DNA of 64,000 bases from the NCBI RefSeq assembly GCF_001447785.1, contig NW_015165283.1:62001-126000 (forward strand). The letters are read 5' to 3'. The position numbers and the translations under genes were made by a program. Numbering within the stretch: the first letter of the stretch is position 1; every line of letters begins with the position of its first letter. Under the pieces are notes generated by a model, which was given only the letters and a program-made list of their open reading frames with translations, was not told the origin of the DNA and did no database searches. This document shows positions 33,831 to 62,017 of this stretch, piece by piece. The DNA is from Gekko japonicus (taxonomy: Eukaryota).

Positions 33831-33974
33831 TGCCCCATGCCCCCTCCCACCTTTCTAATTGTTACAGATAATTTAAGAGAAGGATCTAGGTAGCCAAGAT
33901 TCTGCTGGATTACACTAGCATTCCACAATATGCTAGTTTCAATATGAAGAATGTTTTGGAGAACATTAATTCAT

Positions 33975-35014
33975 ATGGCAGGTCCTTAAAGAGATGGGAG
34001 TACCAGACCACCTCACATGTCTCTTGAGAAACCTGTATAAGGGTCAAGAAGCAACAGTTAGAACCGGATATGGAACAACTGATTGGTTTAGCATAGGAAA
34101 AGGAGTACAATAAGGATGTATATTGTCCCCTTGCTTATTTAATATATATGCAGAGTACATCATGCGAAATGCTGGCCTGGATGAATCACAAGCAGAAATT
34201 AAAACTGCTGGGAAAAAGATCAACAACCTCAGATATGCAGACGATACCACTCTAATGGCAGAAAGTGAAGAGGACCTAAAGAGTCTCTTGCTCAGGGTAA
34301 AAGAGGAGAGCGCAAAAGTGGGCTTGAAGCTCAACATCAAAAAAACCTAAGATCATGGCATCCGGCCCCATCACTCCTTGGCAAATAGAAGGGGAAGTCG
34401 TGGAAGTAGGGACAGACTTCACGTTCCTGGGATCCCAGATCACCGCAGACTGTGACAGCAGCCATGAAATTAAAAGACGCCTGCTCCTTGAGAGGAAAGC
34501 AATGGCGAACCTAAACAGCATGACAAAAAGTAGAGACATCACCCTGCCAACAAAAGTCCGCATGATCAAAGCAATGGTATTCCCAGTAGTCATGTATGGC
34601 TGCGAGAGTTGGACTATAAGGAAGGCCGAGCACCGAAGAATAGATTCTTTTGAACTATGGTGCTGGAGAAGACTCTTGAGAGTCCCTTGGACTGCAAGAA
34701 GATCAAATCAGTCAACCCTAAAAGAAATCAACCCTGACTGTTCCCTGGAAGGCCAGATTATGAAACTGAAGCTCAAATACTTTGGCCACCAAATGAGAAG
34801 GGAGCACTCACTGGAGAAGACTCTGATGCTGGGAAAGATTGAAGGTCAAAGAAGACGGGGACGGCAAAGGATAAGATGGTTAGACAGTGTCATAGATGCA
34901 ACGAACATGAAGTTGAGCAAACTTCAGAGGACGGCAGAAGACCGGAAGGCCTGGCGTGATCTGGTCCATGGGGTCGCGAAGAGTCCGACTCGACTGTGCG
35001 ACTGAATGACAACA
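33975..35014 (+). mobile_element. BovB (RTE) LINE, 5'-truncated
   Basis: LKEMGVPDHLTCLLRNLY; INNLRYADDTTLMAESEEDLKSLL; GLKLNIKKT; VFPVVMYGCESWTI; FELWCWRRLLRVPWTARRSNQS; 3' end catggggtcgcgaagagtccgactcgactg. Confidence 0.97.
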
Positions 35015-42195: not shown

Positions 42196-42264
42196 CCAGT
42201 TATTTTTTTTCCCCTGCAGTTGAGTGGAAGACAGAGAATAGAGAGCTTCAAGAAAATACATGCT

Positions 42265-44046
42265 GGGACTTCCGGTTTTGGCAACTCAATGGCAGATTTG
42301 TTTCTTGTGTGCTCCTGAGGACACGATCCGTGAATGAGCAGATTGAGAGGGGGTGTGATCGTATGCAACCCCACAGGGGCCCGTCCAAGGGCTCCAAGCC
42401 ATGGGGTGCTGAGGGTCGCCTCTCCACCGGTGCATTGCCGGGGGATTGAGGCACACCAAATGCCACGAAGCTCTCGCCACTGCGTTCCCACACTGGGACT
42501 AAGAGGTGCAGACCAGGACAAGCGTGTGGAGATCGAGCGCTTTAAACGTTTGAAGGCGAGATCAACATGATCAACATTAAAAGTGAGTCTGGTTGAAACA
42601 AGCACCAGAGAACCGGCTGAAAGTCCCCCTTAAACTAAGCAAGGGGGAGGGCGGGTACCCCCCCCATGGAATTAAAATGGACTAAAAGCATGATTGTTTG
42701 AGGGGGATGGAACAAAAGGAGATTTGGGACTAAAGTAAGGAACTTACAAGAGATTTCCAAGCATTTTCCAGACTTTAGAGACTTTTGGCAAAATAGAGTA
42801 AATGTAAGCATCCTCAATGATGTCACACAAAAACACAGAGAAAGACAAGCTTGCGAAACCTAAGCCTCCTTGAGGAAGTGCGAGCCCAGCGAGTGCAGTC
42901 ACGCGACCAGACACAACCATAGACTTTTCAAAAATGCGAACAGAGGCTTTGCGACCCCTGCTGGAGCAAATGAAAATGCTCAATGAAAATTTTGCCGCAC
43001 AACAACAACAGCTAAACGAAACTGGAAAAAACCAGAGCAAACAGCAGAGAATTGGAAAGAAGTGGATGTCACTACAAAAAAACTTTAAAAACAAATGCAA
43101 TAAATGGAAAAGAAGAGAAGCTCTGATGAAGCACAATTACTACAAATGGAAAAGGCAAGCTTTATCCTGAGGTTTCAGGGGGTTCCTGAGATTAAAGGGA
43201 AGAACCTCAAACAGACTATGGCTGATGCTTTGGGACGGGTTGCAGATTTAAAAGCGGATTTCCTTTTAAGCAAGATGGATGTGATCTATAGGTCATATTC
43301 AGAATATATAAACAAAAATAATCTGCCCGGGGAGGTGGTGGTGAGGTTCTCCAGAAGACAAGTGAGGGACCAGATCCTAAAAGCTACAAGTGGAACTACC
43401 CTTAAAATCGATGGTAATGAGATAAGAGTTTTAAAAGACATTCCCTTTGAAATAAGAAAAAAGAGGAATAAATACAGAGACTTGGCAGTGTTTTTACCAA
43501 AGAATAACATCTCTTACAAATGGATTCTACTGGAAGGATTACTCTTCAAATATAAAGGCAAGAAAGAAAAAATTGACTCTGTTATGAAAGCACAAGAGTT
43601 TTTGAGGCAGCCATCGGGACCAGTGGGAGAAGATGATGAGGACAAAGGGAACGACGATGAATCACCTGCTGAAGAAGGCTCAGACTCGGAACTTGAAGCG
43701 GCTGCTCCTAAGCAAGGCTACCATTTAAGAGAAAGAAGACATAAAAAATGAGATGCTGATTCTCTCTGAAGTTTGCTTTTAACTTTATAATAGACTCTTG
43801 TTTAGAACCTTACCAAGTCAGATTACCTGGACTCCAAGTACATAAGCTAGTTTTATAATTCACTTGCAGTGTAATAATATAACCTTAAATATTACGAGCT
43901 AAGATATGTAACAATTGTAGTATCTCCACCTCTTGGGTTTTTAGTGGTTATGCTTTACATTCTCCCATAGTTTGTAGTTTCCCCATCCAGTTTTTTCTTG
44001 TAGTTTTAGAAAATTAAAAAAAAATGTTAAAAAAATAAAATAAAAT
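42265..44046 (+). mobile_element. L1-clade ORF1-only element (HAL1-like), bounded at both ends
   Basis: 12-bp TSD aaaatacatgct (42253-42264, 44047-44058), 5' end gggacttccgg, ~550-bp 5' UTR, ORF1 42820-43751, ~295-bp 3' UTR and an A-rich tail; no ORF2. Confidence 0.88.
42820..43751 (+). pseudogene. L1 ORF1p (coiled coil, RRM, CTD, acidic tail) with a TGA at 42871 and a frameshift and stops near 43030-43100
   Basis: LRFQGVPE...DVIYR...LPGEVVVRFSRRQVRDQIL...IRVLKDIP..IRKKR..Y....FL...ISYKW...EGL (L1 ORF1 RRM/CTD); tail EDDEDKGNDDESPAEEGSDSE. Confidence 0.88.
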
Positions 44047-44907
44047 AAAATACATGCTAAAGCATTTACAATATGATCTGGAATGCCTGATAAAACTTTT
44101 TGAGCATTTGTGCAGCAGAGTGTTGTCCCATCACTGCTTCTACCAAGTTCTCAGTAAATAAACAGATATTAATATGACACGATCTGCTTCAAGTGCTCTC
44201 TTCTCATCCAAAGGAAACTAAACCTTGTAGCACTGCACTAAAACCTCTTGCTGCTTGGGAAAATGGGGACCCCCCCCAATATTTTTTGTTAGAGAATATT
44301 ATTCTACTGTGAAATTATGGGACTGATTGAATGTTGAGTTAGTTGAGATGTGGTTGTGCCACATTCTTAATAGCTGCCAAAGAGAGGGTAGTTCTTTTGC
44401 TATGCTTTCCCTTCAGCAAACATTGCCACAGCATACAATTTTAAATAAGAAGTCTGCTTCTGACACTATTCTACAGGTAATTGATTTAAGGTCAGGTGTT
44501 TAGTGACATGTAAGCAGGATAAATATGGACTTGTTGTAGAGGTACATTATATTTTAGCTGATCTTTTCTGTAAACATTTATTCATTTTTGTTCCTGAGTT
44601 TAAGCCTTAAAATAAGGTTTATAAATGTAAGCAAAAATTACACCTTTAAACAAGCAATAGTTCAGGACTTAGATACTGGTATAAAATAAGGTTTCATACA
44701 CAGAGAAGCAAGTTCTCCTGAGGGCCTATTAAGAGCAGTGTAGCAACAATCATATACCATTTGAATTATAGACTTATTTCTATTTCTCTACATCTGATTT
44801 CCATACATTTTGAGCTGATTCACACATGCTTGTAGAGAATTTCTCTAAAGCTGATGATTGTATATATCTGATGATTTGGCACTGAACATGTGACTTGACT
44901 TCCTTTG

Positions 44908-60880: not shown

Positions 60881-61061
60881 ATATATAAAAATACATTAAA
60901 ATTCCATTAAAACTGTCAATCAATATAAAATCATACAACTTGTATTAAAAGATGGCAAATCTTCCGATATTGACTGTCAACTGAACACTGTCCACCAGCT
61001 CACGCCCAGCTATAAAGCCTCGGTTGGTGGCACTGTTGGTACTTTTGGTAAAAACTCCACC

Positions 61062-61319
61062 CTCTACAGATGGATAACTCCAGAAGGACTTATCTTGAAC
61101 TACAAAGAAAAGAAGCAAAAGATTGGCTCTGTTACAAAGGTAAAGGCATTTTTGGAACAGCACCAAACAACAGCGAATGATGGAAGAGCAGAGGACAACA
61201 GCGTAACAGAAGAAAACATTGAACATACATCGAGAAGCAGTGAAAGTTCTTCAGGCAGTCGTCTAGAAGATTCAGACTCCAATAAGGGAATGACAGCTAC
61301 CAAGTTAATGAAAGCCTGA
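61062..61319 (+). pseudogene. L1 ORF1 C-terminal domain fragment with an acidic/Ser tail
   Basis: LYRWITPEGLILNYKEKKQKIGSVTKVKAFL aligns to YKWILLEGLLFKYKGKKEKIDSVMKAQEFL at ~43515-43605. Confidence 0.8.
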
Positions 61320-62017
61320 TTAACCTGTTTTTATAACTGGAGCACAGGCACCATCTTTGTCTTCAAAGCCCTCTGTGCAGACACATTTGAAGCCACCGGG
61401 AGTATTAATTTTGGGGTACGCCTACTGAGAGCCACTGTGATAAACATAGGTCAAAGTCCTGTACCATTCCTTTCTAGGACCCTTTTTAAAGCTAATTTCC
61501 CCTTCTCTGAGTTCAGTTTGGGTAAAAAAGGGTCTCCACCCCACTCCTTGATAGCATGAAAATGTTCCTGCAAGATAATCTGATTTTTGGAAATGAATTG
61601 TTGTAATGTTTGACCAATGAAGTTTAGGGATGAACAATGTTACTTTTTTTTGTAACTCTGTGGTTCTAGGAAAATTCCATGATGTCATTGAAAAATGTAG
61701 TCTGGATTCATCCCAATGATTGGAAATATAATGGACATTTCCTAATACATTGGCTTCATTTCAGAGAAAAAGGCCAAGTAATTTGGAAGTCAAAAAACAG
61801 GGGACAAATTGTGAAGAGAATTTCAGAAGTATCCTTAAGAAATCAGCAGTATCAAAAATGTACTAGCAGTTTTTAGAAACCGATTTAAATTAACAGTTCC
61901 CCTGGAAAGACTCAGTAGGTAGACTCTGCTTGTACTCAGAATCCAATTATCATATTGGAAAATACTCTGTTTCCTTGCATGGTAGATGAGCTGGAGCCTT
62001 ACTTTCTTTGGGGTATC

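Follow-up and report, generated by a model that had tools for sequence, protein, structure and literature searches.

A 64,000-nucleotide stretch of the Gekko japonicus genome (contig NW_015165283.1), hereafter the window, carries a member of an old ORF1-only, L1-derived family whose source elements have an intact ORF1. We read it, with a probability of about 0.88, as a HAL1-type element that would use its own promoter, its own ORF1p in cis and L1 ORF2p in trans through the poly(A) end. The kind is known from HAL1; the clade is unusual in depth and abundance. These ORF1-only elements rank among the main repeat classes of this reptile genome, covering ~2% of sampled bases, with saturated synonymous sites and with young members whose ORF1 is intact.

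The element spans 1,782 bp (42265–44046; this and all features below are on the + strand), and both copies of its target-site duplication (TSD) directly adjoin its ends. The perfect 12-bp TSD reported by the first-pass annotation is there: AAAATACATGCT occupies 42253–42264 on the left and AAAATACATGCT occupies 44047–44058 on the right, each extending to 15 nt with one mismatch (from 42250 on the left). Sibling copies set the ends independently, starting at element positions 1–6 and ending at 1750–1782. An L1-type 5′ terminus (42265–42294) consists of GGGACTTCCGGT at 42265–42276 and then ATGGCA at 42289, and resembles the 5′ consensus described for anole clade-1 L1s (PMC5381506). The same start is common to the window element, to the related lineages B and C and to a young autonomous L1 of this genome, and is likely the beginning of an internal Pol II promoter. 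The 5′ UTR (42265–42819) measures 555 nt, against ~1.05 kb in the autonomous family. ORF1 (42820–43751; 312 codons in the family) follows, with a basic N-terminus, coiled coil, RRM, CTD and acidic tail. The 3′ UTR and A-rich tail together take up 295 nt (43752–44046), comprising a proximal part (43752–43915) that is unalignable between deep subfamilies, a conserved distal block (43916–44025) with a motif at 43930–43944, pyrimidine tracts and ATTAAA at 44013 (AATAAA in most siblings), and the A-rich tail (44010–44046). These measurements agree with the initial description of a 5′ UTR, a ~295-bp 3′ UTR and an A-rich tail lacking detectable ORF2, as we too found no ORF2 similarity within the element.

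The sole L1-ORF2-like match in the 64-kb window lies outside the element, at 33970–34347. This RT-like ORF2 fragment is 33% identical to autonomous L1 ORF2 of this genome and may come from another LINE clade. A fragment at 61035–61320 resembles the CTD and acidic tail of L1 ORF1 and is terminated by a stop; it matches clade and autonomous ORF1s at 26–54% (best E ~1e-11), with no ORF1 upstream and no recognised family tail.

ORF1 of the window copy is dead. Stops at 42871, 43086 and 43101, together with deletions of 1 nt (frameshifting, near 43030) and 6 nt (near 43142), leave a longest open piece of 215 aa. In the majority sequence of 28 close copies, an uninterrupted 312-codon ORF maps to 42820–43748; the ~310-codon ORF1 first annotated therefore holds for the family but not for the broken window copy. 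At non-CpG sites the window copy diverges from its subfamily majority by 6.0%, the median of the 28 copies being 5.6%.

The protein identity of ORF1 rests on relatives as well as on the window copy, whose open piece matches Pfam PF02994 weakly (E=0.02, below cut-off). An intact relative, L092, matches human L1 ORF1p (PDB 2ykp) over coiled coil, RRM and CTD at E=1.5e-5 (2.7e-5 by profile). An AlphaFold model of the clade ORF1p, of modest confidence (mean pLDDT 62.8, pTM 0.33), consists of a long helix and then an RRM-like domain; the top 11 Foldseek matches to it are all human L1 ORF1p, to which the clade protein is only ~20% identical. By sequence and by fold, the element's ORF1 encodes L1 ORF1p. 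Its acidic C-terminal extension, singled out in the first reading, is present but unspecific, since the autonomous L1 ORF1s of this genome share it. A protein search with an intact ORF1 had 0 of 1,847 candidates scored. An HMM search returned 616 ORF1 relatives, the best two of which fall inside lineages C and B, and the named relatives among public proteins are from gecko and coral snake. One gecko protein annotated as 'apolipoprotein A-IV-like', XP_015280709.1, is an L1 ORF1p with 44–47% identity to the autonomous ORF1s of this genome.

The first-pass annotation proposed an ORF1-only family, expecting the ORF1-stop/3′ UTR junction to recur genome-wide in many ~1.8-kb copies with distinct TSDs and an ORF1 dN/dS below 1, and taking copies that continue into ORF2 as evidence against it. 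The junction search returned 1,474 candidates; each of the 40 that were scored spans the junction, at 83–100%. Full-length copies are ~1.78 kb long with distinct TSDs, and dN/dS is far below 1 between subfamilies. From the 5′ end, 908 candidates were found; 22 of the 30 loci taken contain the family 3′ end and 8 do not, and ORF2 follows ORF1 in 0 of the 30. Protein searches recovered deeper subfamilies of lineage A, down to ~52% identity, and the clade as a whole comprises lineages A, B and C, with B and C at 40–45% protein identity to A and to each other. The proposal of a multi-copy family was right, but it understated the scale: this is a deep three-lineage clade, not one family. A further ORF1 type, ~42% identical to lineage A, occurs at L074.

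We then looked for ORF2 in 199 testable distinct copies (A 109, B 43, C 47), having dropped 31 duplicates; another 25 A/B/C hits could not be tested. None of the 199 shows the start of ORF2 within 500 nt of ORF1, and the family tail is present in 189. Three copies have mid-ORF2 sequence beyond the tail because they sit inside older L1s. The positive control recovered ORF2 in 47 of 49 testable autonomous L1s. Unselected tails give the same picture: the first 30 places of the A/C tail motif have clade ORF1 upstream in 25 cases and ORF2 in none, and the first 30 of the B tail motif in 22 and none. Neither the element nor its family has the ORF2, with endonuclease and reverse transcriptase, that marks an autonomous L1. 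What they do have is the HAL1-type combination of an L1-type ORF1p, no ORF2, a multi-copy family inserted as a unit by TPRT, and maintained ORF1 coding.

Autonomous L1s of this genome were sampled as 20 Pfam-led loci, one young family and a few fragments. Their ORF1s at the 20 loci are 27–38% identical to the clade, and none of the sampled autonomous L1s has the matching ORF1 or 3′ UTR of a parent or partner. The 3′ UTRs of ~20 sampled L1 ends and of the young family match the clade only in A-rich ends; a 3′ tail common to clade and autonomous L1s was rejected, the only further similarity being a 17–19-nt match at E=0.03. The young family (loci L281–L300 and L331–L340) has 144 of 144 scored ORF1s identical in protein, a figure that the short-read assembly may inflate. 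All 10 fetched copies have an intact ORF1 and a 1,272-codon ORF2, and the nine with a TSD measure ~5.84 kb. Its first 14 bases are those of some B copies, and its 3′ UTR is G-rich and unrelated to the clade. This family could supply ORF2p to the clade. Elsewhere, L111:1325–4857 shows two near-identical tandem ORF1 blocks ahead of one ORF2, possibly an assembly duplication.

In a phylogenetic tree, A, B and the autonomous set each fall on one side of a branch (98/97, 100/99 and 100/100), with long branches meeting. A quick, midpoint-rooted tree to which C, the young family and 24 public proteins were added placed A, B and C together (SH-aLRT 99) with only two public proteins. Judged from these sequences, the three lineages may descend from one origin.

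The best-surviving alternative holds that undetected autonomous L1s with an ORF1 of this clade gave rise to the short copies repeatedly, in which case ORF1 would have been under selection in those full-length parents and the short forms would leave no descendants. The inter-ORF spacer reported for lizard clade-2 L1s, 270–384 nt, is near the length of this 3′ UTR (PMC5381506), and parents could hide in a fragmented assembly (191,500 contigs) from which only the best 40–150 candidates per search were scored. Yet none appeared among the 199 copies in three lineages or the 60 unselected motif loci, while full-length 5.84-kb L1s of another family do assemble. The 5′ end of the clade is of clade-1 type, and the tail block with its poly(A) signal and hairpin is kept across near-saturated subfamilies. 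Hidden parents are improbable on this evidence, and we retain the HAL1-type reading.

The abundance of the clade is considerable. A 15-nt A/C tail motif has 7,817 exact matches (10 for the reversed control) and the B tail motif 935 (control 0), both lower bounds on copy number. In 40 position-chosen 10-kb stretches (390 kb without N, from large contigs each with at least one hit elsewhere), a hand count gave seven clade elements and, roughly, the ~2% of bases cited above, with one further 82-nt piece excluded. Extrapolation yields ~45,000 copies (Poisson range ~18,000–92,000). The same stretches contain no autonomous ORF1, and 3 of the 40 contain L1 ORF2 at ≥35% identity. Thus, in unselected stretches the clade outnumbers recognisable autonomous L1 pieces (seven elements against three stretches with ORF2).

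Several loci have composite structures. Some clade copies have inserted into autonomous L1s, usually in the orientation of the L1 around them, and the 3′ UTR of a B copy harbours a C copy (L112, L129, L143, L151, L079, L116 and L215). A preference for inserting into L1 was rejected, as five clade copies in 4 of 20 L1-centred loci compare with ~4 expected from background density; one of 60 unselected motif loci has flanking L1 ORF2, against 3 of 40 random stretches. Also rejected were dual-ORF1 or chimeric L1s at L143, a nested insertion with its own tail, and at L149, which is joined across an N gap. Internally deleted elements that keep both ends occur at L010, L045, L004 and L143; the L010 deletion removes element positions 603–1069 (window 42867–43333), and its junction is also present in two contigs of DNA run X1. 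Tail-to-tail pairs, with a second element inverted in or at the clade copy's 3′ UTR or A tail, are seen at L074, L092 and L277.

The insertion signature of the clade resembles that of L1. Of 132 copies put through a strict search, which missed the window's own copy, 42 (one counted twice) have a TSD of at least 10 nt next to the 5′ motif, with a median TSD of 17 nt, a range of 10–23 nt and a median length of 1,776 nt. Clade target sites have a pyrimidine at −1 in 78% and A at +1 in 60%; the corresponding values for nine autonomous copies are 100% and 78%.

At the 3′ end, the last 110–130 nt of the 3′ UTR keep 76–82% identity across A subfamilies that are nearly saturated at ORF1 synonymous sites; the proximal part is unalignable between them. 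Just 5′ of the A tail, 26 of 30 unselected A/C copies have a terminal hairpin with a G+C stem and a 4-nt loop (shuffles: mean 0.43, maximum 3; one of the 26 calls, L260, is a different pairing). Stems differ between lineages yet stay paired. A UUCG-specific loop was rejected, as the loops vary. Most of the clade has the hairpin, but in the window's subfamily just one copy of 29 scores for it, and it is therefore dispensable. The conserved distal 3′ UTR and the hairpin probably aid 3′-end formation or ORF2p capture. Lineage B 3′ ends (for example L147 and L314) form a 7-bp stem with a T-rich 4-nt loop, which we take to be superficially like the histone mRNA stem-loop; the poly(A) signal precedes the hairpin in some subfamilies and follows it in others.

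These 3′ ends also bear on whether a non-L1 LINE (CR1, L2, RTE or Tx1) mobilised the clade. A conserved 3′ hairpin is reminiscent of the stringent 3′-end recognition practised by other LINE clades, and no 3′ UTR is common to the clade and any sampled L1. However, elements of the CR1 and L2 groups mostly terminate in short repeats and lack long TSDs, whereas the clade has a poly(A) tail, TSDs of 10–23 nt and target sites with the same kind of pyrimidine/A-rich bias as autonomous L1s in this genome. Mobilisation by such a LINE is accordingly a still weaker candidate than hidden parents, and L1 remains the preferred source of ORF2p.

Selection on ORF1 is strong and acts at a particular level. In lineage A, the intact ORF1 core has a median dN/dS of 0.14, with all 96 unsaturated pairs below 1 (mean dS 1.6; 9 of 105 pairs saturated); in lineage B the median is 0.09, with 91 of 91 B–B pairs below 1. 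These intact ORF1s were picked for open frames, and CpG decay raises dS in close pairs. Autonomous ORF1s give 0.10 (6 of 21 pairs unsaturated), and the youngest B copies differ by a dS of 0.05–0.07. Among the 28 close copies, singleton changes have an N:S of 311:85, which against a site ratio of 3.85 is 0.95; the ratio falls to 0.35 for changes in 2–3 copies and to 0.19 (N:S 45:62) for changes in at least 4. Shared changes are purified and private changes neutral; therefore, selection acts on source elements, and inserted copies, the window copy included, decay neutrally. This pattern bears on the question of ORF1p's role. Selection on source elements suggests that ORF1p serves its own encoding RNA in cis, separately from ORF2p.

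Purifying selection of this strength, together with many copies that have an intact ORF1, might also be expected of processed pseudogenes from one or a few domesticated L1 ORF1-derived host genes under host selection, for which L1TD1 offers a precedent (PMC4161310). Against this, the tree is deeply nested, with many subfamilies in three lineages, each bearing the 5′ terminus of an L1 and TSDs of its own, which fits serial source elements better than pseudogenes of a fixed gene, and the copies number in the thousands; we regard a host-gene origin as very improbable. A one-off deletion or a prematurely polyadenylated autonomous-L1 transcript behind a single insertion, which the A-richness and many internal poly(A) signals of squamate L1s might favour (PMC5381506), is refuted by the same junction and tail in every scored candidate and by the absence of any copy, among the 199, that reaches the ORF2 start.

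On the HAL1-type reading, and as the anatomy suggests, Pol II would start transcription of a source copy at the L1-type 5′ end, and the element's own signal would direct polyadenylation. The element's own ORF1p would then coat its RNA in cis, a need to which selection on the sources points. ORF2p from an autonomous L1, the presumed donor, would bind at the poly(A) end, cut the target at an A-rich site and reverse-transcribe the RNA, so that a TSD of 10–23 nt results. Since the clade has no 3′ tail in common with a LINE, we infer that L1 ORF2p acts in trans via the poly(A) end. Inserted copies decay neutrally thereafter, as the window copy did. The original loss of ORF2 may have come about through an internal deletion or through polyadenylation downstream of ORF1. 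A bolder version, which we advance tentatively and think somewhat more likely wrong than right, is that ORF2 was lost once and that the clade outlived or outran its parent L1, radiating into at least three coexisting lineages (~2% of the genome, more numerous today than autonomous L1) with its own non-interchangeable ORF1p and a structured 3′ end that captures ORF2p from successive unrelated L1 families. If a single ORF2 loss and radiation did occur, the clade would offer a natural setting in which to study how L1 cis preference is beaten and why ORF1p is needed in cis. RT-based L1 surveys are blind to ORF1-only elements, and L1-driven insertion load in reptiles may therefore be under-counted.

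Mammalian HAL1 (half-L1) was reportedly described by Smit in 1999 and by Bao and Jurka in 2010. According to published accounts, ORF1p is the sole product of HAL1, which originated on several occasions in mammals (PMC5753468), guinea-pig HAL1 kept ORF1 coding for ~29–44 Myr (PMC3627910), and HeT-A, HAL1 and Ag-Sponge are all ORF1-bearing non-autonomous LINEs (PMC5786205). As there described, HAL1 and the gecko clade are alike in being L1-derived, ORF1p-only and multi-copy, with a long-kept ORF1 and presumed ORF2p in trans (PMC5753468, PMC3627910, PMC5786205, PMC13756887, PMC4161310). The clade differs in its reptile host, in an ORF1 that groups with reptile L1-type ORF1s, in its three coexisting lineages, in outnumbering autonomous L1 pieces, and in its conserved 3′ block and terminal hairpin. 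Its origin is likely independent of mammalian HAL1, judging from its reptile-type 5′ end and ORF1 neighbours rather than from HAL1 sequences themselves. Our literature search found no reptile HAL1; Repbase and Dfam lay outside it, and a deposit there under an L1 name is possible.

Other ORF1-bearing systems are further removed. HeT-A is telomere-specific, whereas the gecko copies are dispersed. HeT-A (Jockey clade) and Ag-Sponge (CR1 clade) are described as non-autonomous LINEs that likewise keep only an ORF1-type protein, but they belong to other LINE clades and insect hosts (PMC5786205). Hetero-multimerisation with a helper ORF1p, proposed for elements of the HeT-A/Ag-Sponge type, would be less likely here, where clade and autonomous ORF1s share 27–38% identity. 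L1TD1 is also an ORF1-derived coding sequence without ORF2 and under selection, but is reported as a fixed host gene (PMC4161310), whereas the clade is mobile and multi-copy, and its inserted copies decay neutrally. Compared by published description, clade-1 L1s of the anole have a similar 5′ terminus (GACTTCCGGTGN8ATGGCG), a coiled coil–RRM–CTD ORF1 and a ~300-nt 3′ UTR with C/T tracts, poly(A) signal and tail (PMC5381506). Against that same description, the window element is 1.8 kb rather than ~6.4 kb long, has a 5′ UTR of 0.55 rather than ~1.3 kb, and lacks ORF2 (PMC5381506).

RNA reads resembling the family are few. Three RNA runs from one study contributed 627, 122 and 380 reads to the window stretch, almost all of them inside the element. 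These reads are mostly 88–95% alike to it, occur in both orientations and derive mainly from other copies. At a young B copy, RNA depth is low inside the element, and most reads fall on a flanking repeat. Family-like RNA therefore exists, and read-through is a possible source.
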